A stretch of 64,000 nt of DNA, taken from the IMG/VR virus record IMGVR_UViG_3300037400_002261, positions 32,001 to 96,000 of that record. The stretch is one strand, 5' to 3'. Of this stretch, positions 1 to 30,808 are shown one piece after another. How positions within the stretch are numbered: position 1 is the first letter of the stretch; each line of letters begins with the position of its first letter. Under the pieces are notes generated by a model. The model had not been told where the DNA came from. It did not search any database and saw nothing but the letters and a program-made list of their open reading frames with translations. Made by a program: the position numbers and the translations under genes. The stretch comes from a virus. Lineage: Duplodnaviria > Caudoviricetes.

Positions 1-1122
1 TATCTATGTGGTATTCGCAACCCCCACAATTCAGCAAATAATATTGGTTATTTTAAAAATGTTCACCATCCATTAATGGAAGAATATTTTGAATTTAGTA
101 ATAATATAATGGCTGTCAATTGTATCCATACTGATATACAGTCACGTATGAATGGCGAAGATTTTGATTCAGATTTTAATTTTGTTACAAATCAACCGCA
201 GATGGTTGAAGCTGCCAGAATAGCTTATAGAGATTATCCTACTGTTGTTAATGAAGTTGGCGAAAGCGGTTTATCATATAATAACACAATGTCTGAATAT
301 GCGAGAATGGACTCAAATATGCAGAGTGCGCAGAAAGCTATAGGTGGAGCAAGTGATACTGCTCAGTTGTCTCAAAGTTATTATTGGTCTAAGGTTGATA
401 AAAAAGAATTTGATGATGATTGTAAGCAATATTATGAGAATACTGTAATACTGGCTGTTGCAGCTCAGTTGGCAATAGATGGATGTAAGAGAGTTTATGA
501 GGTTGATGTTAACGATGATATTGCCAGAATAAGATCTCAGCCGTGTATGAAAAAAGCGAATGATTATCCGAATTTTATGAGGTGGACTCATGAGATTCCA
601 GTTACTAAAAATGGTAAAGAAAGACCTCAAGAGGATATTGCTAAAGATAAGGATAGAGTTAAAAGAAGAATAGATGAAAGTATTGTATGTCCTATGAACT
701 GGTTACAAAACTGTTTAGATAAAATACAAGGTTCTGAAAAAAAAGATATCGTAGATACTCAAAAATATTTTATCAATTTTCCAGGATGGGCTAATAATCG
801 GCAAATGTCCAAGATACGTCAGTTGATTGAAGATTATGATGGTTATACAAAAAGAATTATGTTATTAATGAAAGATGATAATGATAATGATGATTATATT
901 AATTTGTTAGGATTAAAAACGGAAGAAGTTCTATCTGAATTAAAAAAATATAAATTATCAAAATATACAATGAATAGATTAATAGGTAGTGTATTAGGAA
1001 TTGATTTAGGTGTTGGTAATCAATATAAATATCACCAATCTTCAAAGTATGTAAGAAAGACTTTAAATTTAATGTATCGAACTAACAGAGAATTATTCTT
1101 ACAAAATTTTATTAAAGCTTAA
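1..1122 (+). CDS. yonO: YonO-like single-subunit (two-barrel, RdRP-like) DNA-dependent RNA polymerase, C-terminal part (5'-truncated by window)
   Basis: Frame is open from base 1 (YLCGIRNPHN...). Contains RNPH and the catalytic-type RMNGEDFDSD (DxDxD) motif. Lies directly upstream of HU, as yonO-yonN in SPbeta. No in-frame TAG; ends TAA. Confidence 0.8.
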   Translation, partial: YLCGIRNPHNSANNIGYFKNVHHPLMEEYFEFSNNIMAVNCIHTDIQSRMNGEDFDSDFNFVTNQPQMVEAARIAYRDYPTVVNEVGESGLSYNNTMSEYARMDSNMQSAQKAIGGASDTAQLSQSYYWSKVDKKEFDDDCKQYYENTVILAVAAQLAIDGCKRVYEVDVNDDIARIRSQPCMKKANDYPNFMRWTHEIPVTKNGKERPQEDIAKDKDRVKRRIDESIVCPMNWLQNCLDKIQGSEKKDIVDTQKYFINFPGWANNRQMSKIRQLIEDYDGYTKRIMLLMKDDNDNDDYINLLGLKTEEVLSELKKYKLSKYTMNRLIGSVLGIDLGVGNQYKYHQSSKYVRKTLNLMYRTNRELFLQNFIKA

Positions 1123-1381: not shown

Positions 1382-1654
1382 ATGAAGAAAATTGATTTTA
1401 TTAAGTTATTTGCAGAAAAGGCTAATATTACCCAGAAGGATGCAAGAGAAATTAGTGCAGCTTATTGGGATGCTATTTTTGAAGCTATGAAGGACGAAGA
1501 TGGAGTGTCTCCTGTTCAGGGTGTTAAGTTTGTAACAGTACACAAGGATTCACGTACTGCAAGAAATCCGCTTACTGGAGAATCAATCGTAGTTCCTGAG
1601 AAGGATGTGCCGAAGGTTAAGTTCGGTGCTAGTGTAAAAGATATGTTTAAGTAA
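1382..1654 (+). CDS. hup: HU family DNA-binding protein (YonN-like)
   Basis: MKKIDFIKLFAEKANIT...RTARNPLTGESIVVPEKDVPKVKFG is the HU/IHF signature; AGGAG RBS. Confidence 0.95.
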   Translation: MKKIDFIKLFAEKANITQKDAREISAAYWDAIFEAMKDEDGVSPVQGVKFVTVHKDSRTARNPLTGESIVVPEKDVPKVKFGASVKDMFK

Positions 1655-1756: not shown

Positions 1757-1829
1757 TGAGTATGTGGTGTAATCAGGTAGCACAGGTCATTTGGGATGAT
1801 CAGGAGGCGTTCAAATCGCACATATTCAA
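1757..1829 (+). tRNA. tRNA-Pro(UGG), atypical or possibly degenerate
   Basis: Acceptor TGAGTATG/CATATTCA, D arm GTGT/GCAC, anticodon stem GGTCA/TGATC with loop TT-TGG-GA, T loop TTCAAAT. T stem has only 3 good pairs; no CCA encoded. Confidence 0.65.
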
Positions 1830-1872
1830 CTATCAGTGATGATGCTGATTACAAAACTAAAATACAATTTTT

Positions 1873-1921: not shown

Positions 1922-2119
1922 GTGAAAAAGTTGATTGATATTACAAAAGACGAAATGGAATATCTTGTAAGTAAAGGAAGACTTAATGATATCCATCTTG
2001 CTTCTGCTACCCACAAGTCAGGATATAAAACAAGGTTTGTAACTGAATCTCCAAAAACATTGAAACTTTTGGAAGAGTATAGAAAAAATCAAATTGTCAT
2101 GACTTATGATGGGCGGTGA
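1922..2119 (+). CDS. hypothetical protein
   Basis: 65-aa ORF, GTG start after AAGGA, overlapping the next gene's start region. Confidence 0.7.
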   Translation: MKKLIDITKDEMEYLVSKGRLNDIHLASATHKSGYKTRFVTESPKTLKLLEEYRKNQIVMTYDGR

Positions 2120-2124
2120 ATTGC

Positions 2125-3339
2125 ATGAAGTATTTTCTTGATACAAATGTTTTATTAGAAGATATAAGTTATTATTCTTCTCTTCAATTTTTATTATCTT
2201 CTGAAACATTGATTGAACTTGAGAGAATCAAAACTAATAGAAATAGAACTGAAGATATTCGGGCTGCGGCTCGTAATGCTATAAAATGGCTTGCCGACAA
2301 TCCTAACGGATACGAGGTTATTCAATATTGTGATGCTATATATCACGAACTATGTAAACTTGAAATTGGTTATTCAGATGATGTAACTGATATTAGGATA
2401 TGCGGTTGTGTATGGTTGGCAACAAAATTATATCCAGATGAAGAAATAATATTTGTAACTCACGATCTTAGCTGTAGAAATATAGCTGAGAAAATTTTTA
2501 AATTAAACGTTGAATGGTTTGATAGTAAGGAACAAATATATAAGGGTTATAAAGAAATATCTGGTAATACTGAGTATATTAATGAATATATGGCTAATAT
2601 AGATTTATCAACTTGGTATACTAATGAATATTGTTTAATTAATAATACTGATGATAATACTCATAAAGAAATGAGATTTGATGGTACAATGTTCGTTCCG
2701 CTAAAATTACCACCTTCTAAATATATAAAAGGTAAGAACTCATTACAACGTTGTGCTCTGGATATGTTAAATAATCCATCTATAACCATATGTGCTATTT
2801 TGGGTGGATATGGTTCTGGAAAGACTATGTTAAGTACAAAGTGTGCTTTAATGTCTGTTCAGGAAAAAGGGTGGCAATCAAAAATAATAACCCTTAGAGA
2901 AATAGTTTCTGAGGGAAAAGAAATTGGTTATCTTCCAGGAGAGAAAGACACAAAGATTCTAGATTTCATGTTACCTTTTGCTGATCAGCTTGATGGCGGG
3001 GAATTCGAATTAGAATCTTTAAAACAGCGTGGAGTTATTGAAGCAAATACTCCTTATTTTATTAAAGGTAGAACTTTTAACGAAAGTATCCTGCTTGTCG
3101 ATGAAGCGGAAGATTTAACTGAAAAACAAATTAGATTAATTGGTACGAGGGTCGGACAGAACTCTCGTGTTTTTTATACTGGTGATTATTCGCAAAGTGT
3201 TATTAACCCAACAAAAAATAATGCTTTAACAAAAATGTGTAATGAATTAAAAGGGAATGAAATGTTTGCTTGTATTTATTTGGAAGATGATGTTCGCAGT
3301 GAAACAAGTAAACTTTTTGCAAATTTATTTAAAAAATAA
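2125..3339 (+). CDS. phoH: PIN-domain + PhoH-family ATPase (PhoH2-like)
   Basis: N-terminal YFLDTNVLL PIN motif; Walker A GGYGSGKT; GYLPG, FIKGRTF, LVDEAEDL and TGDYSQ PhoH motifs. Confidence 0.92.
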   Translation: MKYFLDTNVLLEDISYYSSLQFLLSSETLIELERIKTNRNRTEDIRAAARNAIKWLADNPNGYEVIQYCDAIYHELCKLEIGYSDDVTDIRICGCVWLATKLYPDEEIIFVTHDLSCRNIAEKIFKLNVEWFDSKEQIYKGYKEISGNTEYINEYMANIDLSTWYTNEYCLINNTDDNTHKEMRFDGTMFVPLKLPPSKYIKGKNSLQRCALDMLNNPSITICAILGGYGSGKTMLSTKCALMSVQEKGWQSKIITLREIVSEGKEIGYLPGEKDTKILDFMLPFADQLDGGEFELESLKQRGVIEANTPYFIKGRTFNESILLVDEAEDLTEKQIRLIGTRVGQNSRVFYTGDYSQSVINPTKNNALTKMCNELKGNEMFACIYLEDDVRSETSKLFANLFKK

Positions 3340-3362
3340 AAATATAAGGAGAATAAAAGAAT

Positions 3363-3689
3363 ATGGTTATTAGAAGTATTGAAGATAATGCAATTGAAAA
3401 AAACAATGATATTAATGGTAAGGTAGTAAGAAATCCGAGACTTGCTCGTCAGATACTTGCAAAAGGTGGAAAAGATGTATGGCTTTTTGATATTAAGCCA
3501 GATAGAGATAATCCGCAAAAGTCAGTATATATCTTTGAAAATACCGACAAGTTTCAGGAAGTACTTTCTTCTGTTTTAGATGAAAACAGACAGTCTCGCA
3601 AATCTAACGAAGATGACCTTATTCGTAAGATGGAAGAAATGCAGAAGAAACTTGATGAACTTACAAAACTTAACGAAGCAAAGGAGTGA
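3363..3689 (+). CDS. hypothetical protein
   Basis: 108-aa ORF with AGGAG RBS and a C-terminal coiled coil. Confidence 0.8.
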   Translation: MVIRSIEDNAIEKNNDINGKVVRNPRLARQILAKGGKDVWLFDIKPDRDNPQKSVYIFENTDKFQEVLSSVLDENRQSRKSNEDDLIRKMEEMQKKLDELTKLNEAKE

Positions 3690-3695
3690 TTGCGG

Positions 3696-4307
3696 ATGGA
3701 AGAATTTTTAATCTCTAGCAATGGAGATCAGATGTCTATTTATGAAGAAACATATCGTTCTTTTTTAAGTGATAGATGTATTATTTTTTGCGGAGAAATT
3801 GGTGATGGTGTAATTGATGATGCCATTATGTATATCTTAAAATGGAATAAAGAAGATAAAGATCTTCCTATTGAAAAGAGAAAGAAAATCCGCTTATATA
3901 TTAGTTCTGTTGGTGGTTCAACATTTTCTGCTAATATGTTAATAGATGTTATTGCACAAAGTAAGACTCCAGTAATTGGTGTAGCACTTGATCTTGTAGC
4001 ATCAGCAGCTTATCTTTGCTATCTTGCTTGTCATGAGCGTTATGCATTTGAGAATAGTTCATTCCTTCAACACGAGGGAGATCTTTCAATTGGAAATTCT
4101 AGATCGAAATTTAAACAAACAGCTGAGTTCTTTGATATGATGGAAAACCGTTCTAAAGAATTTATTTTGAGTAGAACTAAAATGACAAGTGAATTTTACG
4201 ATTCTGTTTATGAACAGGAATATTGGCTTTATGCTGATAAAGCGCAAGAACTCGGTATTGTTGATAAGATCGTGGGAAAAGATTGTAGTATTGATGAAGT
4301 ATTATAA
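3696..4307 (+). CDS. clpP: ClpP-family serine protease
   Basis: DRCIIF, IRLYISSVGGS, VASAAY (catalytic Ser), FLQHE (His), EYWLYADKAQELGIVDKI. Confidence 0.92.
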   Translation: MEEFLISSNGDQMSIYEETYRSFLSDRCIIFCGEIGDGVIDDAIMYILKWNKEDKDLPIEKRKKIRLYISSVGGSTFSANMLIDVIAQSKTPVIGVALDLVASAAYLCYLACHERYAFENSSFLQHEGDLSIGNSRSKFKQTAEFFDMMENRSKEFILSRTKMTSEFYDSVYEQEYWLYADKAQELGIVDKIVGKDCSIDEVL

Positions 4308-4309
4308 TG

Positions 4310-4339
4310 ATGGAGAGTAATTACTACTCTCCATTTTTT
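4310..4339 (+). terminator. intrinsic terminator
   Basis: ATGGAGAGTA-ATTAC-TACTCTCCAT hairpin plus T run right after the clpP stop. Confidence 0.8.
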
Positions 4340-4356
4340 ATATTGGAGTATAAATA

Positions 4357-4557
4357 ATGACAGATTTTATTTTAGGTAAGATTGATTGTGTAGAAGTATT
4401 AAATGCTATGAAGCAAAATACTTTTAGACCTAGCTTTCAACATTGTTATAACGTAAAACACAGACCAACATATACATTTGTCAATTGTTGTGATGAAAAT
4501 GGGAATATTATAATAAAAAGATTTGATGTAATAAAAGGCGTGTTTGTTGATAACTAA
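4357..4557 (+). CDS. hypothetical protein
   Basis: 66-aa ORF with GGAG RBS. Confidence 0.65.
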   Translation: MTDFILGKIDCVEVLNAMKQNTFRPSFQHCYNVKHRPTYTFVNCCDENGNIIIKRFDVIKGVFVDN

Positions 4558-4585
4558 ATAAATCTTATGGAGGTAAAAGGATTAA

Positions 4586-4903
4586 ATGGAGATAGATAAA
4601 TTAATTGAATTATTAACTGCTAGTCCAGAGATTGCTAATGCAACTATCACTGGGATTTTTAATCAGTATAAACCAATATTATATTTAGTTCTTAATGAAA
4701 TATTTAAGATGTATAGTGATTTGGCATATAATGATGAATACTTTAAAACATCTGCTCATTATACACGTAATAGATTTAATGCGCTTGTTAATGAGGGATT
4801 TACCGAAGATCAGGCAATGGAAATTATGTTGGCTGAAATGAGACAAGTTCGTGAAAGTGCTCAAAGGGTAACTTCTAGAACTTCAACAAGAAATAATAAA
4901 TGA
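4586..4903 (+). CDS. hypothetical protein
   Basis: 105-aa ORF with RBS; GFTEDQAMEI helical motif. Confidence 0.8.
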   Translation: MEIDKLIELLTASPEIANATITGIFNQYKPILYLVLNEIFKMYSDLAYNDEYFKTSAHYTRNRFNALVNEGFTEDQAMEIMLAEMRQVRESAQRVTSRTSTRNNK

Positions 4904-4923
4904 TGAAAAGGAGATAAAAGGAT

Positions 4924-5142
4924 ATGCAGAATTATAAGTATAATAAAGTAACAACTGAAAAATTTAATATTAAAGGCGAACTTTCTGATGATTGCAAAAC
5001 AATCAGATATATTGATGGTGACAAGGAAGAACAGGAAATTTCAGTGGCAAAATGTTTTGAGAAATTTGCTGGTCAGGAAATTGCACTTTCTCTTATGCTT
5101 AAGACAGATGAGGATCTTTCGGACGAATTTGAGGAGGAATAA
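4924..5142 (+). CDS. YonK-like small protein
   Basis: FNIKGEL...FEKFAGQEIALSL resembles SPbeta YonK; same position, before a YonJ-like gene. Confidence 0.6.
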   Translation: MQNYKYNKVTTEKFNIKGELSDDCKTIRYIDGDKEEQEISVAKCFEKFAGQEIALSLMLKTDEDLSDEFEEE

Positions 5143-5145
5143 TCC

Positions 5146-6348
5146 ATGACTCCTGATGAATTAAATAAAAAGCCAGACGAAAGTGAGTTGGCTTATATAT
5201 TACGGATTGGCAGTGCAAAAGCTGCTGGTCTGTTAGATATGACTTGGGCTGAGTTGGCAAATATATTTAATAAAAATTTGAGAGAACCTGGGCAAGAATA
5301 TAACGAGAGTACTTATAGAAAGAAGTTCGCTTCTATTCGTCAGTTTGGCGATGAATTTGGTAATAGTGATGATTACGAAGAATTAAGAAAGCTTAAAGAT
5401 GAAATCTATAAGGAAAAGCGTAAACTATTTGACCAGCGTAGAGAATATAATAAGCTTCTTACATCTGATGCGAGAGCTGAACATCTTACAGAATATATGA
5501 TTGAAGCTGCTAATAATCTTAATAAACAATATCCGTTATTGGATATTTCTGATAAGATAAATGATGGGAAAAAGGAAGCTTTAATATGTTTATCTGATTG
5601 GCATTATGGTATGGAAACTGATAATATTTGGAATAAGTATAATACATGTGTATGCCGTAATCGCATAACAATATTTATTAAATATGCCAAGAAATATCTT
5701 ACTGAACATAATATTAACACTGCGAGAATTATTCTTCTCGGTGATGCAGCCAATGGTGCTATTCATACAACTTGTCGTATAAAGTCAGAGGAGGACACTT
5801 GTGACCAAATTATGCAAGTATCTGAAATATTGGCACAAGTAATTAATGAAATTTCGTCTGTTGTTAACAATGTGATTGTTTATTCTTGTTATGGGAATCA
5901 TCTTAGAAGTGTTCAAAAAAAGGAAGATTCTATTCATTCTGATAACATGGAAAAAATTATTCCGTGGTGGCTTGAGCAACGTCTCAAAGATAATAAAAAA
6001 GTAAAAGTTGAGTATTCTAATTATAAAGAATTTACTTATATGAATATACTTGGAAAGAACATAGTTTGTATTCATGGTGATGAGTTTAATTTTAAAGATA
6101 TTGGACCAACTGTAAACACATTGTTTACTAAACTATTCGGGTGTTCTATTGATTATACAGTTTCTGGAGATAAACATCATCTTGAAGAATATGGTCAGTA
6201 TGGTATAGAGAGTATCCTTGTAAGATCTCTTTGCGGAACTGATGATTATGCTAACGGGAAACATTTATATGATAAGCCTGGGCAAACTATTATTATATTT
6301 AATGATGATTATGGTAGAGAATGTACCTACCATATTCCGTTGGATTAA
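5146..6348 (+). CDS. calcineurin-like metallophosphoesterase (YonJ-like)
   Basis: SDWHYG, LLGD, GNH, HGD and GDKHH motifs with an N-terminal coiled coil; SPbeta synteny. Confidence 0.85.
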   Translation: MTPDELNKKPDESELAYILRIGSAKAAGLLDMTWAELANIFNKNLREPGQEYNESTYRKKFASIRQFGDEFGNSDDYEELRKLKDEIYKEKRKLFDQRREYNKLLTSDARAEHLTEYMIEAANNLNKQYPLLDISDKINDGKKEALICLSDWHYGMETDNIWNKYNTCVCRNRITIFIKYAKKYLTEHNINTARIILLGDAANGAIHTTCRIKSEEDTCDQIMQVSEILAQVINEISSVVNNVIVYSCYGNHLRSVQKKEDSIHSDNMEKIIPWWLEQRLKDNKKVKVEYSNYKEFTYMNILGKNIVCIHGDEFNFKDIGPTVNTLFTKLFGCSIDYTVSGDKHHLEEYGQYGIESILVRSLCGTDDYANGKHLYDKPGQTIIIFNDDYGRECTYHIPLD

Positions 6349-6360
6349 AAGGTGTGAAAT

Positions 6361-6462
6361 ATGAAAGATATAGATTTATATTGTTGTTATTCAATAAAAC
6401 TTAGAAATTATTTAACAAATAATGATTTTAGTAAATATGAATTACCAAATATTAAATTTTAA
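6361..6462 (+). CDS. small hypothetical protein (33 aa), possibly a remnant
   Basis: AGGTG RBS; MKDIDLYCCYSIKLRNYLTNNDFSKYELPNIKF-TAA. Confidence 0.4.
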   Translation: MKDIDLYCCYSIKLRNYLTNNDFSKYELPNIKF

Positions 6463-6475
6463 GGAGAAGATAAAT

Positions 6476-7021
6476 ATGGAAAAGATTAATGTGTTAAGCA
6501 TTGAACATTTAGAAGATATCATGATTGAAAATTTAGAGGAAAATAAATCAGTGTCTTTGGTTTCAGATTTTGAAACTGTTTGGGAAATTGCTATGGATTT
6601 TCATAGGTATGAGGATGTTGAATTTGAGTATGTTGATATCAATACCGACTATGACAAGGAGTATTATCTTACTCTCATGATGGATGATGATAACAATGCT
6701 ACTATGGCAATTGAAAAAGCATTTTGTGAAGAAATTGATAATTATCTTGCCACAGATGGTATTGTATTTATTGAAGATACTGTTGATTATAAATATCTTA
6801 CTGATGTGAAAAATAATAAGCATTTAAAAGATGGCGATTTTACACCTATTATCTTTACATTTGATACAGATGATGAAAAAGATAATAAATGTGATGATTG
6901 TTTGTTTGGAAAAGAAGTTACTGATAGTCAGGTACGATTTTTTGTTCCAGCTTGTATGGATGAATTAGTTAAGGCTATTGATAACTTAATGGATAAATAT
7001 ATTGTGGATAATTATAGATAA
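6476..7021 (+). CDS. acidic hypothetical protein
   Basis: AAGGAG RBS before ATG 6476; last TAG-free gene before the suppressor tRNA. Confidence 0.8.
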   Translation: MEKINVLSIEHLEDIMIENLEENKSVSLVSDFETVWEIAMDFHRYEDVEFEYVDINTDYDKEYYLTLMMDDDNNATMAIEKAFCEEIDNYLATDGIVFIEDTVDYKYLTDVKNNKHLKDGDFTPIIFTFDTDDEKDNKCDDCLFGKEVTDSQVRFFVPACMDELVKAIDNLMDKYIVDNYR

Positions 7022-7096: not shown

Positions 7097-7098
7097 AT

Positions 7099-7171
7099 AG
7101 GGGTGTGGTGTAATGGTTCAGCACAGGTGGCTCTAACCCACTTGATCTGGGTTCGAATCCTAGCACCCCCG
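7099..7171 (+). tRNA. amber suppressor tRNA, anticodon CUA, Gln-type
   Basis: Cloverleaf: acceptor AGGGGTG/CACCCCC (A1:C72 mismatch, G2:C71, G3:C70, G73), D arm GTGT/GCAC, anticodon stem GGTGG/CCACT with loop CT-CTA-AC (CTA at 7133-7135), T arm CTGGG-TTCGAAT-CCTAG. Confidence 0.95.
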
Positions 7172-7179
7172 TTATTTAT

Positions 7180-7252
7180 GCTGATGTAGCGCAATAGGCA
7201 GCGCAACTGATTTGTAATCAGTGGGTTGGAAGTTCAATTCTTCTCATCAGCT
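7180..7252 (+). tRNA. tRNA-Thr(UGU)
   Basis: GCTGATG/CATCAGC acceptor; ACTGA-TT-TGT-AA-TCAGT anticodon arm; TTCAATT T loop. Confidence 0.92.
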
Positions 7253-7256
7253 TTAT

Positions 7257-7331
7257 GGGAATATAGCTCAGTTTGGTGGTAGCGAGTGACTGTTAATCAC
7301 TAGGTCGTTGGTTCAAGTCCATCTATTCCCG
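7257..7331 (+). tRNA. tRNA-Asn(GUU)
   Basis: GGGAATA/TATTCCC acceptor, G73; AGTGA-CT-GTT-AA-TCACT anticodon arm; TTCAAGT T loop. Confidence 0.9.
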
Positions 7332-7336
7332 TCATC

Positions 7337-7446
7337 GGAACGGAAACATTTCGGAGTAGCTACCGAGATGTGAGTGCATTACACCTGCAGCACTCTTCCG
7401 TTCTTTTTTATTATGTAATTTGCAGGTGAGAAAGACAGGTGAGAAA
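7337..7446 (+). ncRNA. candidate structured leader RNA (three-way junction + T run + RBS-pairing loop) of the GIY-YIG gene
   Basis: P1 GGAACGGAA/TTCCGTTCT, P2 ACATTTCGG/CCGAGATGT, P3 GAGTGC/GCACTC. P3 loop CACCTGCA is complementary to TGCAGGTG (7421-7428) and to the duplicated CAGGTG RBS. Confidence 0.55.
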
Positions 7447-8581
7447 ATGATTGGAATATATAAAATAACTAATTTAGAGAATGGAAAAATGTATGTTGGT
7501 CAATCTGTTGATATAAATAGAAGATGGAAAAATCATAAAAGGTTATTAAATAATAATAAACATCAAAATAAACATTTGCAGAGTTCTTGGAATATTTATG
7601 GATCTGAAAAATTTGAATTTTCAATTATTGAGTTATGCAATGAAAATGAATTGGATGAGAAAGAAATATATTGGATAGATAAACTAAGAACTTATCATGG
7701 TTTTCCAGATTGTAATGGATATAATGATGCGCTTGGTGGAAAAGGTGCTTCATGTATTCATCCTGTATTACAATTTAATTTATCTGGTGATTTAATTAAA
7801 AAATGGTAGAATGCTCTATATGCTGCTAGAGAACTTAATATTGATGCTAGTATCATATATTTATGTATACACAGAAAAATTAAACGGGCTGGAAAATATA
7901 TTTTTTGTTATATTGAGGATTATAATAATTCAGATAGTCTAAAATGGTATTTTGATGATAGAAAAGTCGCTCCAGTATTACAATGTGATTTATTTGGAAA
8001 TATTATTAATAAATGGGATACTTGTCAAATAGCTAAATCTGAATTGGGGTATAATCCTATTAGATCTAGAGAAAATAATACTTTGGTTTCTCATGGATAT
8101 ATCTATATTTATGAAGATGATTATAATCAATTGACTGATGAATATTTACAATATATTCGTAGTGCATATAATAAAGTAAAGGTAAAAAAAAGTTATTCAA
8201 TTAGATCAGAATGGAGTTATTGTTCAATCATTTGATTCTATGCATGATGCAGCCAGAAATGGCTTTCATATTAGAATGGTGAGAGAATGCTGTCAACATA
8301 AGCGAAATACATTAAAAGGATTTGTGTTTTGTTATGATGATGAAATAGATAATTATACTCCAGAAAAATGTTATGAATTATGTAATTCTAGAAGAAAAAA
8401 TAATCGTGGGAAAAAAATTATTCAAATTGATAAAGATAATACAATTGTAAAAATTTATGATAAATTATCTGATGTTTTAGTTGATGGTTTTAATATGAGT
8501 AATGTAAGTGATTGCTGTAATGGTTTAGTTGATAACTATAAAGGATATAAATGGATTTATGAAAAGGATGGTGCTATATGA
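7447..8581 (+). pseudogene. free-standing GIY-YIG homing endonuclease with NUMOD1-like repeats; one TAG (Gln) and a frameshift at an A8 run
   Basis: MIGIYKITNLENGKMYVGQS is the GIY-YIG motif. Reads through TAG 7807. At A8 (8184-8191) the repeat VIQLDQNGVIVQSFDSMHDAA continues in the +1 frame to TGA 8581. Confidence 0.8.
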
Positions 8582-9624
8582 TAAGATTAAGACCAGCACT
8601 TACAGAAGAAGAAGTGAGAAAAACTGGCGTTGCATAGATAAGGCAGGAATATAATAAATTAGCCAAAGATTATAATCGTATAATTAATGGGGATGTATAT
8701 TTATGTCAAAAATGTAACGAATTTCACAGTGTTGATGCTTTCTATAGTGATAAAAAATATGCAAGTGGTTTATTCCCTATATGTAAAAAATGTTTAATAG
8801 GTATGGCTTGTGACTATGATAAAAAAACAAATCAATATACTGATAATCGTGAAAAGACAATGAAGGTTTTGGAAATGATGGATTTGCCATATATTGATTC
8901 TATGTATCAATCCGCTCTTACTTCTTGTGCGGAAGATGTTCAAGACAAACATCGGAATACTGCATGGTCACATTATATTACTGTTATTAAATCTCTTCCA
9001 AATTGGCGTGGTAAAGGATGGGCAGATTCAGAATTACCATCAGATCAATTTGAGGAAGAAGTAAAAATAAATAATAAAACTCTTAAAAACGCAGTTAAAA
9101 GATTTGGACCAGGTTACACAAATGAAGATTATATGTTTCTTGAAAATGAATATCAAGATTGGATAACAAGATATGAGTGTAATACAAAGGCTCAAGAAGC
9201 TGCATTCGAAAGATTGAGTTTTAAAAAGTGGGAAATTAATAATGCTACCAAGAAAGGTCTTCCAACCAAGGATTTGGATAAGACTTATCAAGAATGGCTA
9301 GGTACTGCTAACATACAACCAAGGCAGACAAGTATGGATGCTACTGCTGATGCTCAAACGTTTGGAACATTAATTCAAAAATATGAAGAAACTAGACCTC
9401 TTCCAGAAATTGATCCCGACTTGGAAGATGTTGATAAGATAGGCTTGCTGATTGATGTGTTTTTCCGTGGACACGCAAGCAAGATGTTAGGATTAAAAAA
9501 CACGTTTTCGCATTTATATGAAAGATTTATGAAAAAATATACAGTAAACAAACCAGAATATGATGAGGATACTGATAGCGAAACTGTTTTTGAAAAAGTA
9601 TTTGGTAGTATGGAGGATGATTAA
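8578..9624 (+). CDS. terS: probable terminase small subunit (YonG-like, Zn finger); TAG=Gln
   Basis: ATGA overlap start; one TAG at codon 20; CQKC...CKKC zinc finger; directly upstream of terL with TAATG coupling. Confidence 0.7.
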
Positions 9625-11390
9625 TGCCACCAAAAAATAAAAAGACATTAGCAGATGTTCAGAAAGAAAAGTCTGAGCGTTTAATGGACGGGATCGCATA
9701 TTGGGCAGCTTTCTATAGAAAGAATGCTCATAGATTTGTAAATGATTTTTTAAATATTAAGCTGAAAACATTTTAGAAAATTTTAGTGTACATGATGATG
9801 GTTAGCACTAATTTTCTATATATTGCAAGCCGTGGTTCTGGTAAGACTTGGCTTACAGCTTTATATTGTGTAGTCCGTTGTATTTTATATCCAGGCACAA
9901 AGATTTGTGTTGCATCTGGTGTAAAATCATAGGCTGTTGAAGTAATTACGAAAATTGATACAGACTTCTTGAAAAATTATTCATGGGGTTCTTAGAATTT
10001 AAGAAATGAAATAGAATATATATCAACGAGTGTTAATAATGCTCGTGTAGATTTTAAGAATGGTTCTTGGATTACTGTTGTTACTAGTAATGATAATGCT
10101 CGTCATAATCGTGCGAATATTGTTGTTGTAGATGAATTTAGGATGGTTGATTTAAATGTGATCAATACTGTATTGAGAAAATTCTTAACAACATCAAGAA
10201 TGCCTGGATATTTAAGTAAACCAGAGTATGCTCACTTACAAGAGCGTAACTCTGAAATATATATGAGTTCAGCTTTTTATCAAAGTCATTGGAGTTTTGA
10301 TAAGACAAAATCATATTTTGCAAATATGTTGGATGATAAAAGGCGATATTTTTGTTGTAGCCTACCTTATTAGCTTGCTATTAAAGAGGGATTATTATCT
10401 CGTGAACAAGTTGAAGATGAAATGAGTGAGGCAGATTTTGATCCTATTGCATTCTCTATGGAGATGGGTGCTGAATTTTATGGAGATTCTGATGGGGCAT
10501 TTTTCAGATATGATGATATATCTAAATGCAGAAAAATAAAAACTCCATATTATCCTATTGATTTTTATGATAAGCGTGGTATCAATGTACCAGAATTAGC
10601 AATAGGGGAAAGAAGAATATTGTCGGTTGACGTAGCTCTTATGGCATCAAGAAAACATAATAATGACGCTGCTGCTATCACAATTAATGTAGCATTACCG
10701 AATAGTGATACTTCTTATATAAGTAATATTGTATATGTTGAAACATTTGAGGGATTAACAACAGATGAATTAGGACTTACTATAATGAGATATTTTTACC
10801 ATTATAAATGTACTGATTTAGTTCTGGATAGTTCTGGCAATGGTTTAGGTGTTTATGATGTTATTATTAAAGAAACATATGATCCATAGCTTGGTATAAC
10901 GTATGATGCGTTATGCGCATGTAATGATGATAATATGGCAAGTCGTTGTAAAGTTAAAAATGCAAGAAAATGTGTTTGGTGTATTAAAGCATCTGCGGAT
11001 TTTAACTCAAATGCTGCTACTGCTTTGAGGGCTGGTTTTAAAAATGGAAATATTAATCTTCTTGTTTCAGAATTTGATGCCGAGGAAATTATAAAAAAGA
11101 CAAAAGGATATTCTAAGTTATCTGCCAAAGAATAGGCTACATTAAGTTTGCCATATTTATAGACAAGTCTTTTGATTAATGAAATGATAAATTTGGAACA
11201 TGAGATAAATAATAACAAGGTAAAATTAAAAGAGCGGTCAGGAATGAGAAAGGATAGATTCAGTTCTATTGAATATAATTATTGGATTGCACAAGAACTT
11301 GGTTTAAAACTTAGACCTAAACAATCATCTAATGATTTATTAAAATATATATCTATTACTCCACCTTGCCGTTCAAAAACTTATGATTAA
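9624..11390 (+). CDS. terL: terminase large subunit (588 aa); TAG=Gln
   Basis: One frame across 7 TAGs. LKTF[TAG]KIL Q-motif, Walker A ASRGSGKT, Walker B VVVDEF, nuclease motifs SVDVA, LVLDSSG and RKDRFSS. Confidence 0.95.
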
Positions 11391-11409: not shown

Positions 11410-13002
11410 ATGCCCAGAAAACCTAAAGCGCAAGAGGCGCTTACTGATAGTCGTGAAGGTGTTATGAGCCAACAACTTGTTCCAAAAAAGAAAAAGGATG
11501 AAGTTGAGGTTATAAATAGACCTACGGCTTTAGATTTTGAAAAAACCAAAAAACTGAAAGAGTTGATTTTGTAGGATGTTTCCAGAGGTAGGACGCAGAC
11601 TGCAATGCAATATACAAAAAGTTTGGTTTCTACTTATTTATAGAATCCATATAACTTCAGAAGTTAGATAATTGGTGTATCCAGATTTTTATGGAGAGTT
11701 AGTGCGATTTATCGTAAGATAATTTTTTATTATGCTACAATGCCTAAATATAATTATTGTATTGTTGAAAGACCAGAATTTACAAAAACTCCTAATGTTA
11801 AAAAAATGTTGAATGATTATGAGACAGTTCTTCGCAGAGTACATCAATTTAATTTTAAAGAAGAATTTGCCACTGCTATTGCTCTTGCAATACGTGATGG
11901 TTCATATGTTGGTTATATGTATGATAATGAAAATGAAGGGTCTTTTCTTCATATGCTACCAGTGGAGTATTATAAAATACGTGGTAAGAATGAAGCTGGA
12001 CAATGGGTGGTATTTTTTGATGCTACATATTTTGCAGTTGGTCAGAATAGAATATTTGTAGAAGGTATTGATGGTGACACTTCTGGGTGTTGGGCAGATG
12101 AGTTTATACAAGGATGGAAAGATTATAATTCTAACAGGGATTTAAGATGGTTTATGTTAGATCCATCTAAGACTATAACTCTTCTTGGTGGACTTCAAGA
12201 TGAATTTGATAATCCATTACCTTTTTTTACTGGGTTGTTTCCGTCTATTCTTAATATGTTATCTGCTGAAGAACTGGTAGCTGATAGAACAGAATTAGAC
12301 AACTTCTATCTTCTTCTGTTAAAGATTGATACTTTTGATGAAAATACTGTTGATGATTTTGAAGTAAGCCTTGAATTGGCTAATGCTTATAAAGATGCTC
12401 TTGAGGGTATTATGCCGAAATTAAGTGGCGTAGGTCTGGCTCCAGGTATGGTGCCTGAACTTATTACGTTTAATAAGGCTAATTCAACTAATGACGAAAG
12501 TATTGTTCAGGAAAATATAAATAATATTTTTGCTCAATCTGGAGCAAGTCAAACAGTTGTTTCTTCTGGAGATTCACAAAGTGCATTGAGTATTAAATAT
12601 TCGCTAATTAATGATTTTAGCTATGTTGCTCTTCTTCTTTCTCGCCTTGAAAAAAATTATCAATATTATATTGATAAAAATATTTCCGAGAATACTATTT
12701 TCACCATTCATCATCAAACACATTATAATGAAGATGAATATCTTGAAAAGTTAAAAACTTCAGCGACTCTTGGTGGTTCTGCCATGAAGTATGGCACAGC
12801 AATGAATATGACACCATATGAATTTTATTGCACTATAAAATTTGAGTCTGCAATTGGTTTAAAATCTATGATGGAGCCTCTTGAGTCTAGTTATCAAAAG
12901 TCAGCGAATGATAATGATGATGCAGGTAGACCAAGGGCTTCTGATGATGAGATATCTGGAAGCGCAGAGAGAACGAGAAATATAGTTGATGATAATGTAT
13001 AA
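11410..13002 (+). CDS. portal protein (YonE-like, 530 aa); TAG=Gln
   Basis: AGGAGG RBS; 3 TAGs in the first 90 codons; follows terL; acidic C-terminus with the GRP motif typical of portals. Confidence 0.85.
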
Positions 13003-13572: not shown

Positions 13573-14748
13573 ATGGCTTATAATAAAGAAACTGGAATGT
13601 ATGAAGGGTTTATATATAAAATAACAAATAATATTAATGGTCATTTTTATATTGGACAAACTCGTACAACTGTTGAAGAAAGATTTTATAATCATACAAA
13701 AGATTATTCAATAAGTAAATATCAAAAATACGGTTTATACAAAGCTTTTAAAAAGTATGGCGTTGATAATTTTAGTGTTGATACAATAGAAACTCATCAA
13801 GCATTTACACTTACAGAATTAAATAATATATTAAATGAAAGGGAAATGTTGTTAATAGCAGAAAATCGTAATATATATGGTAAAGATTTTTTATATAATC
13901 ATTCTCGTGGTGGGGACTATGATGGTTGTGCAACTGAAAATATACCTGTGATACAATATAATTATATAGGTGAAGAAATTAATAGATTTGATTCTATTGT
14001 TGATGCTAAAAGAATCACTGGGGTTTCTGGTATTAGTGGAGTTATTAATAAAAAACCATAGAATTTATCTTCTGGTGGATATATTTGGAGAAAACAAAAT
14101 GATCCTTTGACAAATGAAGAAATTCGTTTTATTATGATTCATTTTAATACAATGCCGATTAGATAGTATGGATATAATAATACATTTATTAAACAATATG
14201 ATTCAGTTAAAGAAGCTTCTGAATCTATTGCCAATGATAGATACAATAATAATGATATTGTATCACATATAAAAATGTGTTGTGAACATAAAAGTAAAAC
14301 GGCATACGGATATATATGGAGATATGAATTTGATAATTCTTTTGATGATGTAGATTATAAAAACTGTCAATTTGCAATTGAACAAAGAGAAAACGGCACT
14401 GGTAAATTACTTAATACGTTTATCTCTACTATAGAAGCAGAAAAAATAACTGGTGTTGATGATAGTATTATTTCACAATGTTGTAATCATAATTTAGATT
14501 CAGCGGGTGGTTATTTGTGGAATAAAGTAGGGGATTATAATCCGAATATTCTTAAAACTATAACAATTAAACCAGTTGTTCAATTATCAAAACAAGGTGA
14601 ATATATAGCCACTTACGATTCTCCGACTTGTGCTCAAAATGCAACTGGTATTTATTCTAAAAGTATTAGCAGAGTATGTAGAGGCTTTTTAAAATCTACT
14701 GGTGGATATAATTGGCAATATTTATATGATTATTTAAAAATATTATAA
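13573..14748 (+). CDS. free-standing GIY-YIG homing endonuclease with NUMOD1-like repeats (391 aa); TAG=Gln
   Basis: GFIYKITNNINGHFYIGQT; repeats PVIQY, PIR[TAG]Y and PVVQL with GGYxW ends; 2 TAGs join the track fragments. Confidence 0.9.
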
Positions 14749-16552: not shown

Positions 16553-16578
16553 ATAATAATTACATAGTCTATTTTACT

Positions 16579-16606
16579 TGGCGGGGATAATATCCCTGTT
16601 ATTTTT
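16579..16606 (+). terminator. terminator-like hairpin
   Basis: TGGCGGGGAT-AAT-ATCCCTGTTA followed by TTTTT. Confidence 0.5.
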
Positions 16607-16637
16607 GCAAAAATTTAAGAAAGGAGAAATGATAGCT

Positions 16638-17159
16638 ATGATTAATGCATTTTTACAGGCTGTAAATAAGCACATTGTTGCTGAAAGTACTAATCTTCAG
16701 GCTACATATGATGCTAAACACATTTTCAATGTAAAAGCTGGTGCTGACATTGATAATGGTCGTGTTGTTAATCTGGATGATATGGCTTGGGAAGCTAATG
16801 AGTATTTTACCATGGTTGAGCCTACTGCTACTTCCAGAGTTGGTCTGGTACTGAGTGTACCGATTGGTTATGATGAAAGACCGAAAGCTGCTACTTATGA
16901 GCATAACTTCTATAATGGTCAGGGAGAGATCATGAGAGTTTATGATCTTCTGATTGGTGATAAGTTCACTGTTTCTGCTAATGGTATTGACGGCGGTGAC
17001 GCTGTTCAGAAGGGTGCTTATATTGTTGCAGATGGTTATAATCTGAAAGCATAGGCTGCAAAACCCGCTGCAAGTGCTGGTTTCGTTGGCGAAATCGTTG
17101 AGGAAATCAACCGCACCAATGGTAAGTTCTATAAGATTTTTGTTCGCAAGAATGGTTAA
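16638..17159 (+). CDS. capsid decoration/cement protein (YonC-like); TAG=Gln
   Basis: 173 aa with one TAG at 17052; highly biased codon usage; immediately upstream of the major capsid gene. Confidence 0.7.
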
Positions 17160-17177
17160 TGAAAGGAGGGAAATGTA

Positions 17178-18281
17178 ATGAGTAAATTTATGAATTTTGC
17201 TGCTAATACTAAAGCTGCATTTGATAATAACGAGTCTGCGTACATGAACTTCTCTCAGCTTCTTGCTGATTATAATCGTGGAGTATTCCAGTCTGGAATT
17301 ACCAAGGCTGATGCAGATGAAATGATTAAGGAAAAATTCCGTCTTATTATGGGTATTGACGAGACTGCTTCTAAGAAAGAAATTCGTAGAGCAATCAATC
17401 GTCATAAAAATGAGATTTTCGAAGTCATAGAAGATACTGTTGACAATATGTTGACATCTGGATGGACAGATAATGAATTTTTCAGGGACTTCGTGGAAAC
17501 CAAAAATCTCGCTCTTGGTGATACCAACGAGTTTGAAACAGAAGATGAAACCGTTCTGACAGTTGGTAAACTTAGCGGCGATCACTGGGATATTGATAGA
17601 CAACGCCTCGGAATTGGAGAGGTGTTCCGTGTACCGACTTATTGGGTTGGTCTTGGTGTATACGAGGAATTCGAGCGTGTTATGCTCGGAAGAGCAGACT
17701 GGACTCGTCTTGTAAATGCTATCTATGAAGCTATGGATAAGTATGTTGATGAGGTTGTATATCAGGCCGTTATGGAAGCTGGACAGAAGGTTCTTCCTGG
17801 TTCTGAACAGTTCTATAAGACTGCTGCTCTTGATGCTGCTGCTCATGATGCCTTTATCACTATGGTAGAGGATGTGTAGGCCGCAAATAGGGGGACTGAG
17901 GTAGTTATTATGGGTACGAAGACTGCTCTTTCTAAGCTGAAGAATCTGGCTGATGTTAACTGGATTGCTAAGGAAGATCGTACAGACCATAGAAACCTTG
18001 GTCATGTTGGTATCTTTGAGGGTACTCGTGTTGTTGAGATTCCGCAGGTATTTGCTAAGAATGATACTACTACAAAGATGGTAGATCCTAACGTTCTGCT
18101 GATTATGCCTGTAGCTGATAATAAGTTCATCAAACTCGTTTATGAGGGTGATGCTATGATTAAAGAGGTTACTGATAATACTGTTAACCAAGATATGACT
18201 TATGAAGTTAAGTATATGACCAAGCTTGGTGTGAGCACCATCATTGGCAGATATTTTGGCACCTGGAATATCACGACCTAA
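17178..18281 (+). CDS. major capsid protein (YonB-like, 367 aa); TAG=Gln
   Basis: Track fragments 17178-17879 and 17910-18281 are in frame and joined by one TAG (17877); AGGAGG RBS; size and position fit. Confidence 0.88.
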
Positions 18282-18310
18282 TTTATTAAATTTGAAAGGA
18301 TTAAAAGGAT

Positions 18311-18898
18311 ATGGCTACGACCACAAAAAGGAGAGTTGTCAAGACTGCACCAAAGGAAACTGTTGATGAGAAAGTTACTTTGAATGAAGAGCCTGTTGCC
18401 GAGAAAGTGGTTAAGAAAGAAGCAAAGAAAGAACCACGCCAGTTTAATCAGAACGATCTCATCCTTTGTCGTTCTGTAACTGCTGGTTGGCTTGGTTGCA
18501 GTGGTAAGTCTGGACAATATTATGTATTTGAAAACTTTGGAGATGAATGTGAAATCGAATATCAGGATTTGTTTGCGCTTAAAAGTAGGCATTCTAACTA
18601 CATCTATGCACCCCATTTTGTAATTGAGGATGAAGAGTTGCTTGAAAATCCTCGCTGGGCAGATGTAGCTAAGTTCTATGATGAAAAAGTATATACTATG
18701 GAAGATGTTGAAGAGGTACTTAATCTTCCAATTAATAACTTTGAAGCTGCTCTTAAAAAGCTTCCAAAGGGATTGGCTAAATCTCTTCAAGTGCGTGTTG
18801 CGCAAAAAATTGAAGATGGAACATTTGATTCTCTCAAAAAAATAAAAATCATCGATGATGTTTATGGAACTGATTTCAGAAGTATTATCGCTGATTAA
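18311..18898 (+). CDS. hypothetical head-associated protein (YonA-like)
   Basis: 195 aa, no TAG, directly after the major capsid gene. Confidence 0.75.
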   Translation: MATTTKRRVVKTAPKETVDEKVTLNEEPVAEKVVKKEAKKEPRQFNQNDLILCRSVTAGWLGCSGKSGQYYVFENFGDECEIEYQDLFALKSRHSNYIYAPHFVIEDEELLENPRWADVAKFYDEKVYTMEDVEEVLNLPINNFEAALKKLPKGLAKSLQVRVAQKIEDGTFDSLKKIKIIDDVYGTDFRSIIAD

Positions 18899-24659: not shown

Positions 24660-25664
24660 ATGGCTCGTAGCCGAGGAGTTTACAACAGAATTTATAGTGA
24701 CGAAAAATGGTTATAGGTTAATCCTGAAAATAAAGCCATAATGGATGACTTCCTCACAGAGTTGCGACAATAGAAAAAAAGTCCAAATACTATTGAAGCA
24801 TATAGACATGATTTAAAATTAATATTTATAAAAATTCTTGAAGACTTTAATAATAAGTCAGTTTTAGAAATGACAAAGAAAGATTTTCGCCGTTTAAATA
24901 TTTGGTTTGATGATTCTGGAATGTCTCCAGCGAGATGTAATAGGCTTCACTCTTCTATCAATTCAATGTTAACATTTTGCGAAGAAGATGATGATTATGA
25001 TTATGAAGTTAATTATAGTAAGAAAGTGCGTGGAGTTCCTAACGAAAAAGTAAAAACAAATGATGATGATTTCTTCTTTACATTTGATGAATTTATTAAA
25101 ACAAGGAATATTCTTGTAGAACAAGGTAGATTGTAGGATGCTGTGTTATGGTCTTTAATGTATGATTCTGGTGCGAGACGTAATGAAGTATATCAAGTAA
25201 AGAAACAAGGTCTTCTTGATGGTAACAAAACAAATATTGTTAGAGGTAAACGTGGAAAACAATTTCCACTTATTTATTTAAATGATACGAAAGAACTTAT
25301 TCGCCAATATCTTGAATGGCGTGGTGATGATGGAATTGATTCATTATGGATTAAAGGACATGGAGAAACTGCTTCTGAGATTGATTGTTCTACATTATAT
25401 GATCGTATTGTAAGTATTAGTAAAATACTTTCTGAGGTTCGTGGTGAAGAAGTTAATATTTTTCCGCATAGTTGCCGCCATAGTAGATTGCAAGCATTAA
25501 AAAAGGGATGGGATGACCGTCTTAAGGATGATGGAGGGAAAAATAAAGTATTTGAATTAGATCAAATATAGGCATTTGCACATCATTCAGATTTAACAAC
25601 TACTTCTGGGTATCTTAAAGATGAAACTGAAGACAAAATAAATGAAATGTTTGGAATTTCATAA
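24660..25664 (+). CDS. tyrosine recombinase (YomM-like, 334 aa); TAG=Gln
   Basis: SGARRNE (R), VRGKRGK (K), PHSCRHSR (HxxR), I[TAG]AFAHHSDLTTTSGY (H and catalytic Y); 4 TAGs. Confidence 0.92.
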
Positions 25665-30292: not shown

Positions 30293-30808
30293 ATGGAAAA
30301 TAATAAAATCTCAGCAATAGAATATATAAATAATAATGAGTTACTCGAAGTAAGTTATATACCATTTGATCAAAAAATGCAAGTGGTTAGTGATGTTTTG
30401 TCTGAAGTTATTAATTCTGTGGGTGGATTAAATACTACTCTTTTGCGTAGAGTTTCTACTGAAGTCTTTATTGAAACTATTACTAATATTGATATGGGAA
30501 TTGTTGATGAAAATGGTTTAAGCGGTTTTGATCAATTGTGTTATTATAATCAACTTAATACACTTAAAACAGTTATTGGTAATGAATATATTGAATTTGA
30601 AACTATTTTAAAAGAAAGAATATCTGACTATATTCGTATTGAAACAAATCCAGCTGTTACTATTAGTTCTATATATAATCAACTTAAAAATAATACGGAT
30701 AAAGTTTTAGATTATGTTAGTAACCAAATTCAAAATTTAGATATTGATGATTTTGTTAATAGGATTTCAGAAACTGCTACTGCTTTGAACGGTGGTGGTG
30801 ATGAATGA
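30293..30808 (+). CDS. hypothetical protein, possible tail assembly chaperone
   Basis: 171 aa, upstream of the tape measure gene; YIPFDQK motif. Confidence 0.75.
   Translation: MENNKISAIEYINNNELLEVSYIPFDQKMQVVSDVLSEVINSVGGLNTTLLRRVSTEVFIETITNIDMGIVDENGLSGFDQLCYYNQLNTLKTVIGNEYIEFETILKERISDYIRIETNPAVTISSIYNQLKNNTDKVLDYVSNQIQNLDIDDFVNRISETATALNGGGDE

Follow-up and report, generated by a model that had tools for sequence, protein, structure and literature searches.

How phages that use TAG as a sense codon defeat the release factor 1 (RF1) of their host is an open question, which an uncultured phage represented by IMG/VR record IMGVR_UViG_3300037400_002261 poses in extreme form: a single open reading frame (ORF) contains 164 in-frame TAG codons. 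We analyzed a 64,000-nucleotide stretch of this record (bases 32001–96000 of 107,285 bp; hereafter the window, in whose coordinates positions are given), with emphasis on the nine genes at 1922–7021, which lie directly 5′ of an amber-suppressor tRNA. The original prediction for this stretch held that one of these TAG-free genes may remove or block RF1, or that the factor may lie outside the window. That proposal is unsupported, although it is not refuted: most of the genes have homologs in standard-code phages. We consider it probable that the block consists of inherited SPbeta-type genes and is not a code-change module, that TAG is read mainly by means of the suppressor tRNA, and that RF1 is not specifically removed.

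Meaning of TAG in the late genes

The giant ORF (31815–56747, plus strand) encodes 8310 amino acids when its TAG codons are read through. A recount gave exactly 164 TAG, where about 164 had been claimed, together with 283 CAA and 42 CAG, and the two TAG-TAG pairs noted before were found to begin at 40590 and 42555 (the second had been placed at about 42556). Given the base composition, the chance of 8310 codons without TAA or TGA is about 1e-246. The product matches PhageMin_Tail (PF10145) with 52.2 bits against a cut-off of 33.2, at approximately residues 4237–4448, and no Pfam match was found in its first 4000 residues. Because this match lies above the cut-off and the ORF stands just ahead of the tail genes, the label of tape-measure-type protein is reasonable. 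The largest ORFs of the complete relative G006 (4354, 2775, and 2313 aa) are far shorter than that of the window.

In-frame TAG also occurs in other conserved, intact genes, with seven in the terminase large subunit (TerL) and three in the portal gene, compared with the 164 of the tape measure gene. We compared the TerL of the window and of its 92% relative L068 with that of four standard-code relatives (L069–L072), which are 79–83% identical in TerL and contain no in-frame TAG. Ten of the 12 alignment columns with TAG in either recoded sequence hold Gln in all standard-code relatives, and 37 of the 45 residues aligned to TAG are Gln. Judging from these alignments, TAG is read as glutamine in the late genes. 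The codon counts of the late genes (262 TAG, 467 CAA, and 109 CAG) show that TAG largely replaces CAG beside CAA.

The arithmetic behind the original prediction was confirmed: read-through of 97% per codon leaves a full-length fraction of 0.0068 (0.97 to the power of 164), and 99% leaves 0.19. About 98–99% read-through per TAG is needed for the full-length 8310-aa product, as had been argued. In a cost model assuming about 300 full-length copies per burst, approximately 44,000 initiations are needed at 97%, and approximately 1,600 at 99%. This high requirement is real and unexplained.

The code changes at the suppressor tRNA

The suppressor tRNA gene (anticodon CTA; 7098–7172, plus strand), detected by ARAGORN and by the Rfam tRNA model (57.5 bits), marks a sharp code boundary between the TAG-free ORF at 6422–7021 and the first TAG-bearing gene at 7420. 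The latter (7420–8235, plus strand) encodes a GIY-YIG homing endonuclease (PF01541, 1.7e-12) with one in-frame TAG, and genes for tRNA-Thr (TGT) and tRNA-Asn (GTT) lie between the two (7180–7333, plus strand; ARAGORN, Rfam). Downstream of the tRNAs, 33 of 43 plus-strand ORFs carry TAG. Upstream, the nine ORFs at 1922–7021 contain no TAG in 1627 codons, against about 24.7 predicted from the rate in late genes (P ~2e-11); the 15 plus-strand genes 5′ of the tRNA contain none in 4063 codons, with 67 CAA and 53 CAG, and end only in TAA or TGA, with off-frame TAG being common in them. Over the whole 39 kb of the record upstream of the tRNA, 66 of 75 greedily called ORFs of at least 50 aa lack TAG, and the remaining nine are antisense-looking or have TAG close to an end. 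The upstream genes had been described as TAG-free, and indeed every credible gene 5′ of the suppressor tRNA is without TAG. Because the entire 39 kb is TAG-free too, this property is not special to the nine genes.

The same boundary bears on whether UAG is a poor stop signal in the host, or none, in which case no neutralization would be needed. The early genes shun TAG over approximately 4000 codons and the switch falls sharply at the phage's own suppressor tRNA, a pattern to be expected only if TAG is unreadable at the onset of infection. In addition, the close relatives with 79–83% identical TerL contain no in-frame TAG. We regard poor termination by the host as extremely improbable, and we rejected the idea of TAG being a sense codon in the host on the grounds that early genes avoid it.

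An exact search for the suppressor tRNA in viral contigs gave no matches, and blastn with the suppressor tRNA of each of three related recoded phages against all fetched genomes returned self matches only. These tRNAs are 75 nt (window 7098–7172), 87 nt (L068:5509–5595), and 96 nt (G006:C1:159771–159866) in length. Because the three differ in length, genome position, and sequence, they suggest separate acquisition, which would have occurred in the window phage, L068, and G006. In the complete recoded genomes G007 and G008, neither ARAGORN nor Rfam detected a tRNA with a CTA anticodon. Conserved, odd tRNA-like genes of 87–93 nt are present in G007 (C1:14050–14141 and 12891–12981), G008 (C1:165018–165110), and G011 (C1:62787–62879 and 63944–64030). 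G007 and G008, which have approximately 220–250 in-frame TAG to decode, also carry tRNA-Gln (TTG).

Most block genes have homologs in standard-code phages

Relatives were collected by a YonJ search, a TerL search, and a PIN-PhoH alignment search, and whole records were fetched afterwards. The YonJ search gave 66 related loci, none with a CTA tRNA or heavy TAG use; the TerL search gave the recoded L068, whose own suppressor (87 nt) is encoded elsewhere, and L069–L072, which use the standard code; and the PIN-PhoH search gave a clade carrying the same block. TAG counts inside long frames were 243, 135, 249, 220, 28, and 26 in the recoded G000, G006, G007, G008, G010, and G011, and 4, 6, 11, 17, and 14 in the standard-code G001, G009, G013, G014, and G015. 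In the three of the latter that were checked in detail (G009, G013, and G015), most long-frame TAGs fall at frame ends. L002, a contig of 10 kb that combines the same block with a different TerL type, is lightly recoded, with one in-frame TAG each in TerL and portal (7635–9557 and 9573–10196), the TerL TAG being aligned with Gln in seven of the eight closest homologs; from these codons, the accumulation of TAG in L002 seems to be at an early stage. ORF-coverage and internal-stop metrics for recoding were dropped, being too noisy and missing L002.

Phylogenetic profiling of recoded against standard-code relatives had been set beforehand as the test of the block genes. We profiled seven recoded records against ten comparators by tblastn (1e-5), the comparators being nine standard-code records (in the case of G005, only probably so) and phAss-1, a recoded phage that is not related. 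An antisense ORF on the minus strand (16653–18326, 557 aa) proved to be an artefact, as the real plus-strand genes at 16578–17159 and 17178–18281 have strong PHROG matches; its row in the profile is void, and these two genes were left out. Seven of the nine block proteins have homologs in standard-code genomes, so that most candidates are shared, and the 65-aa protein is the only one whose BLAST matches follow recoding.

The second gene of the block (2116–3339, plus strand) encodes PIN-PhoH, a predicted PhoH2-type RNase and RNA helicase/ATPase with a PIN_4 domain (PF13638, 5.5e-11, residues 7–125), a PhoH domain (PF02562, 4.8e-36, residues 204–403), and a full-length match to phrog_2765 (3.6e-79). 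It was found in all seven recoded records and in the standard-code G009 (52%), Brevibacillus phage Sundance (34%, 98% coverage), and Clostridium phage D-1873 (39%), in the last two of which it follows HU at the same syntenic place. At least 80% of PIN-PhoH is covered in 92 GenBank phage records. The copies in recoded phages fall into two types that are 35–37% alike, as distant as the standard-code copies.

A ClpP-family serine protease (3690–4307, plus strand; PF00574, 2.6e-21; phrog_94, 2.2e-21) is likewise present in all seven recoded records, in G001, G009, G014, G015, and G005, and in phAss-1, and ClpP-like genes adjoin YonJ in many standard-code loci. Pfam thus confirmed the labels of ClpP and PIN-PhoH first assigned to these genes. 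In an alignment with solved ClpP, Ser and His are matched and Glu sits at the Asp position of the Ser-His-Asp set, which we take to be the catalytic residues. Pfam scans of the record detected no ClpP unfoldase or adaptor.

Both enzymes could act on RF1 indirectly, with host mRNA (including that of prfA) being destroyed and host protein lowered, so that RF1 runs down as the suppressor tRNA accumulates. They are intact, TAG-free, and kept in every recoded record; PhoH2 enzymes unwind and cut RNA, according to the available text of Andrews, Rzoska-Smith and Arcus (10.1101/2020.01.15.907535); PIN-PhoH is broken in the standard-code G009; and ClpP is common to the unrelated phAss-1 (31%). The frequency of both genes in standard-code phages implies at most a general effect, and the lack of a ClpP unfoldase or adaptor in the Pfam scans argues against host shut-off of this kind, which we consider unlikely.

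The first gene of the block (1922–2119, plus strand) encodes a 65-aa protein of no family and runs 4 nt into the start of the PIN-PhoH gene. A 59–65-aa homolog abuts or overlaps PIN-PhoH in nine of nine loci, with a spacing of approximately −14 to +30 nt. Because of this conserved overlap, we propose that the 65-aa protein is translationally coupled to PIN-PhoH and acts with it, as its probable partner in a phoAT-like arrangement. The family comprises 348 representative clusters at E ≤ 1e-3. No Pfam match was found for the protein itself or by a Pfam profile search of the family, a cluster look-up of ten relatives returned no names, and one relative (P0160) had no match among GenBank phages. 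Protein Atlas look-ups (≤0.80 for this protein and ≤0.85 for the 199-aa protein described below) are leads only, and a complex prediction for the 65-aa protein with PIN-PhoH (score 0.01) gave no answer and carries no weight either way. In the profile, the 65-aa protein was detected in six of seven recoded records by tblastn and in the seventh, G006, by blastp (4e-7), and in none of the ten comparators at tblastn E ≤ 1e-5; divergent homologs aligned at the same position are present in the standard-code G009 (23%) and in the probably standard-code L005 (39%), the L005 gene having TAG as its stop codon.

The third gene (3363–3689, plus strand) encodes a 108-aa DUF5659-like protein. Five of seven family members match PF18903 (best E 3.9e-5; 0.014 for the window copy), and the structure model (pLDDT 77) shows strand-helix-strand-strand followed by a long C-terminal helix. 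It was detected in five of seven recoded records by tblastn, with weak or by-eye matches in L002 and G007, and G005 was the sole comparator match. A 105-aa protein (4586–4903, plus strand), modeled as four helices (pLDDT 74), was found in five of seven recoded records (not in G006 or L002) and in the standard-code G015 at 31%; a word-indexed homolog search returned two clusters, and its further relatives came from the loci. Neither the 108-aa nor the 105-aa model had a Foldseek match in the PDB at E ≤ 0.001. Between ClpP and the 105-aa gene lies a 66-aa orphan ORF (4357–4557, plus strand) with a weak match to phrog_10885 (7e-4) and no homolog in any other fetched locus or genome, recoded or standard.

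One of the conserved small proteins of 65, 108, and 105 aa could be a dedicated RF1 antagonist (a binder, modifier, or degradation adaptor). They are TAG-free and directly 5′ of the suppressor tRNA and late operon, comparison with Pfam and PDB assigned them no fold or function, the block and recoding occur together in four lineages of the TerL tree, and the 65-aa protein has the profile given above. Each candidate also has features that speak against such a role: the 65-aa protein has same-position homologs in G009 and L005 and an overlap that points to PIN-PhoH, the 108-aa protein belongs to a DUF5659-like family with a homolog in the probably standard-code G005, and the 105-aa protein is missing in two recoded genomes and present in a standard-code one. 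Nor is the signal specific, as approximately 41 other clade-specific genes co-vary with recoding. We judge an antagonist among these three to be very unlikely, and the orphan at 4357, missing in all other recoded genomes, to be a less likely one still.

The remaining genes of the block are a 72-aa protein at the yonK position (4924–5142, plus strand), a YonJ-type (Mre11/SbcD-like) exonuclease (5146–6348, plus strand; phrog_284, 1.1e-56), and an acidic 199-aa protein (6422–7021, plus strand), which is the last TAG-free gene. The yonK label is positional, the gene lying directly 5′ of YonJ, and BLAST found no similarity to yonK of SPbeta or Sundance; homologs occur in all seven recoded records and in the standard-code G001 and G015. 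YonJ is widespread and includes the SPbeta protein (25%, E 5.5e-22). The only BLAST homolog of the 199-aa protein is in the standard-code G001 (32% over 87 aa), and a 182-aa ORF at the same place in L002 resembles it by eye. Of the small proteins first listed as candidates, those at 1922, 3363, 4357, and 4586 correspond to ORFs, but the one at 6476 is an internal ATG of the ORF at 6422–7021; the list also omitted the genes at 4924–5142 and 5146–6348. The block is best read, from these family matches, as serving putative RNA processing (PIN-PhoH and a small partner) and proteolysis, together with the processing of DNA before it is packaged.

Release factors and a possible cost of TAG

No Pfam domain of a release factor (RF) or aminoacyl-tRNA synthetase (aaRS) was found in the 102 ORFs (15 + 49 + 38) scanned of the 107-kb record, and PCRF had no match in it. 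The RF-1 domain PF00472 was absent in ten of ten related records, including G006 (100% complete, with terminal repeats), G007 (100%), and G008 (98%). The earlier observation that the window holds no release factor or synthetase is thereby upheld across the record, and an RF domain is lacking in three complete recoded relatives as well.

Some features of TAG placement are relevant to whether RF1 is still active. In G000, the base following in-frame TAG differs from that following CAA/CAG (T 17% vs 23%, A 42% vs 34%, p=0.0046), and true stops are most often followed by T (74 of 166). This +1 context bias is significant in G000, G007, and G008 and when the data are pooled. Three positional equivalents of SPbeta virion proteins retain CAG and are sparing with TAG, which makes up 3 of their 23 Gln-type codons compared with 257 of 810 outside them (p=0.067); post hoc inclusion of a fourth gene, rich in CAG, gives 5 of 46 and 255 of 787 (p=0.0016). 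These data give a weak hint that RF1 is not wholly out of play and that TAG carries a residual cost.

A dedicated RF1-neutralizing factor could also lie outside 1922–7021, among the early TAG-free genes, in the missing half of the record, or as an RNA. Room for it exists in the 39 kb upstream, which is TAG-free and nearly all unannotated, in a record that is approximately 54% complete (CheckV), and among the 41 clade-specific ORFs of G006 described below, most of which have no Pfam match. The complete G007 and G008, with neither an RF gene nor a recognizable CUA tRNA but with odd 87–93-nt tRNA-like genes, imply an incomplete parts list, and unknown enzymes or RNAs are proposed in the portion of a preprint by Borges et al. 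that was available (10.1101/2021.08.26.457843). Nevertheless, no candidate has a feature tying it to termination, no report of a phage RF1 inhibitor was found in the text accessible to a full-text literature search, and the weak residual cost of TAG fits competition better than full removal of RF1. We regard a factor of this kind as doubtful.

Co-variation of the block with recoding

In a maximum likelihood tree of TerL (quick search, 34 rows), the recoded phages form the groups {G000, L068}, {G006, G007}, {G008, G010, G011}, {L002}, and {phAss-1}, each beside standard-code rows. The recoded label needs at least five changes on this tree, forced by well-supported branches, and phages with 79–83% identical TerL differ in genetic code. 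The simplest reading would be one backbone able to recode, which swaps late modules with standard-code relatives; a shared backbone of this kind would account for recoding being scattered on the TerL tree yet following the middle block, and L002 would then be a recent late-module capture.

Several observations weigh against the reading of the block as ordinary inherited genes combined with a suppressor tRNA. Four of the five recoded TerL groups (G000; G006/G007; G008/G010/G011; and L002) share the middle block, L068 of the first group being too short to show it. In their standard-code sisters (G001, G013, G014/G015, and L064/L032/L048), the 65-aa gene is missing, as is any close PIN-PhoH, and tblastn found no clear homolog of the 108-aa gene; the middle block travels with recoding. 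In G009, the one standard-code genome with a close PIN-PhoH, codon 260 of the gene (L107:9992–11191) is a TAG that breaks it; the relatives encode Glu, Ala, or Arg there, and this TAG is a nonsense mutation and not recoding. Proteins of 60–110 aa are hard to detect in distant genomes, which makes their presence and absence both soft evidence, and five of the nine block proteins are without known function. The direction of the +1 context bias varies, with A rising in G000 and G006 and G rising in G007 and G008. Finally, amber suppression in Escherichia coli with RF1 present is usually well below the 98–99% that would be required of the suppressor tRNA in the window phage.

The co-variation extends beyond the block. 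Forty-one ORFs of G006 recur in both G007 and G008, whereas six standard-code genomes have none of them. A scan of 34 of the 41 showed proteins for replication, NrdD/NrdG, a transporter, an HNH nuclease, a ProQ-like protein, and unknowns, and no translation factor or translation-related domain was found among them. Because approximately 41 other clade-specific genes co-vary alike, the co-variation points at the backbone and not at the nine genes. On a broader version of the antagonist proposal, the recoding backbone of SPbeta-like phages includes an unrecognized RF1 antagonist among its TAG-free genes, and late modules acquired from standard-code relatives then fill with TAG. Candidates would be the 65-aa/PIN-PhoH pair, the DUF5659-like protein, the ClpP-family protease, and the 105-aa protein, in addition to approximately 30 further TAG-free, clade-specific genes outside the window. 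We consider this distinctly unlikely.

Gene order and other features of the window

The window phage is, by TerL identity and gene order, evidently an uncultured SPbeta-like phage, as its earlier label had it; complete relatives are 185–202 kb in length. Matches to SPbeta (SPBc2) run in the same order (YonJ 25%, YonG 32%, TerL 49%, the last to yonF), and the succession of large ORF, HU, small protein, YonJ, YonG-like protein, TerL, and portal parallels the SPbeta stretch yonO, yonN, yonK, yonJ, yonG, yonF, and yonE. The TAG-free 905-aa ORF at the yonO position, of which the window holds the 3′ part (1–1122, plus strand), is so labeled by position only, as it has no BLAST match to the SPbeta stretch and no Pfam match; its homologs are 36–84% identical in recoded relatives and 38–52% in G009 and G013–G015. 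The HU-type DNA-binding protein (1382–1654, plus strand; PF00216, 4.3e-18) is the yonN equivalent, with 34% identity to SPbeta yonN. It is followed by a tRNA-Pro (TGG; 1757–1830, plus strand; ARAGORN), which is found at the same place in L002, L109, and L110. Beyond the block, the YonG-like gene (one TAG) and TerL (seven TAG) occupy 8578–11390 on the plus strand, TerL itself being 9624–11390, and the portal has no BLAST match to SPbeta yonE but matches phrog_2739.

Within the late region, a tyrosine-recombinase-like gene (Phage_integrase with a SAM-like N domain; 24660–25664) carries four in-frame TAG and therefore cannot be produced before the code switch. GIY-YIG/NUMOD homing endonuclease genes with in-frame TAG are scattered through the region (7420–8235 and 13573–14748 in the window, and 100168–100986 in the record), and a fourth, NUMOD-like ORF (8240–8581) has none. 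Ten late plus-strand ORFs are TAG-free, among them those at 56809–57651, 18311–18898, 30293–30808, and 61980–62483, and one of the ten encodes a 280-aa tail protein (DUF6558); at the late TAG rate, a gene of 280 codons without TAG is expected approximately 1.4% of the time.

Comparison with known recoded phages

The code 15 phages of Borges et al. (10.1101/2021.08.26.457843), as described in the available text, have early genes that fit both codes and recoded late genes. They encode suppressor tRNAs and in some cases synthetases or release factors, with most genomes lacking the last two. The code-change module proposed there consists of a suppressor tRNA with an aaRS and/or a release factor (RF2 in TAG-recoded phages), written in the standard code upstream of the recoded genes. 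The window phage resembles these phages in reading TAG as Gln, in the placement of its suppressor tRNA in a TAG-free part just 5′ of the recoded structural genes, in having close standard-code relatives, and in having no RF or aaRS, as in most such genomes. Relative to what is described there, it differs in being SPbeta-like, in concentrating 164 TAG in a single ORF, in the lack of RF2 and aaRS even in complete relatives, and in its recoded recombinase-like gene (24660–25664). The TAG-free upstream placement expected of the module was found for the tRNA only, and the RF and aaRS components were not found.

PhAss-1, of the proposed Phassvirus (PMC10607447, available in part), is a large gut phage of Bacillota type in which 41 ORFs contain TAG, the TerL, tape measure, and portal genes among them. 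Like the window phage, it has suppressor tRNA-CTA genes and no aaRS in the account given there. The two differ in that phAss-1 has 36 tRNAs, three of them suppressors, and is without PIN-PhoH and the small proteins of the block; it shares with the record only ClpP, a homing endonuclease, YonG, TerL (22%), portal, and two other ORFs.

SPbeta and Sundance share with the window the order HU, (PhoH in Sundance), YonK, YonJ, YonG, TerL, and portal, with TerL 49% identical to that of SPbeta and 27% to that of Sundance, and YonJ 25–27% to both. Unlike the window, neither contains in-frame TAG or a suppressor tRNA. PIN-PhoH and ClpP are absent from the 25-kb stretch of SPbeta examined, and neither phage has a detectable homolog of the 65-, 108-, 66-, or 105-aa protein.

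The arrangement of the 65-aa gene and PIN-PhoH recalls mycobacterial PhoH2, which has a small upstream interacting partner, PhoAT (10.1101/2020.01.15.907535, as far as its available text goes). In both, PIN is fused to a PhoH ATPase and a short co-oriented gene abuts or overlaps the 5′ end. The phage pair differs in its context, which is not a chromosomal toxin-antitoxin locus, in the lack of similarity of the 65-aa protein to named families, and in that the partnership is predicted from gene arrangement.

Discussion

Taken together, the reading that we prefer is as follows. The block at 1922–7021 would be the last TAG-free stretch of early and middle genes, ending at the suppressor tRNA that opens the late operon, and would have been inherited with the SPbeta-type order HU, PhoH, YonK, YonJ, YonG, and TerL. 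It would be without TAG because translation before the suppressor builds up cannot use this codon. Late in infection, suppressor tRNA made from many genome copies would read the 164 TAGs, perhaps assisted by general host shut-off. We infer that read-through depends chiefly on the phage suppressor tRNA, with RF1 probably out-competed or running down and not specifically removed by the block, so that some residual TAG cost may persist.

The genes at 1922–7021 are best filed as an ordinary conserved block. If a phage protein that switches off RF1 does exist, it would be a useful tool for genetic-code expansion. The close standard-code relatives of the window phage (TerL 79–83% identical), together with three complete recoded relatives, make for a tractable comparison with a shortlist of approximately 41 genes, and the apparent exchange of late-gene modules between codes in these SPbeta-like phages provides a natural swap for it.

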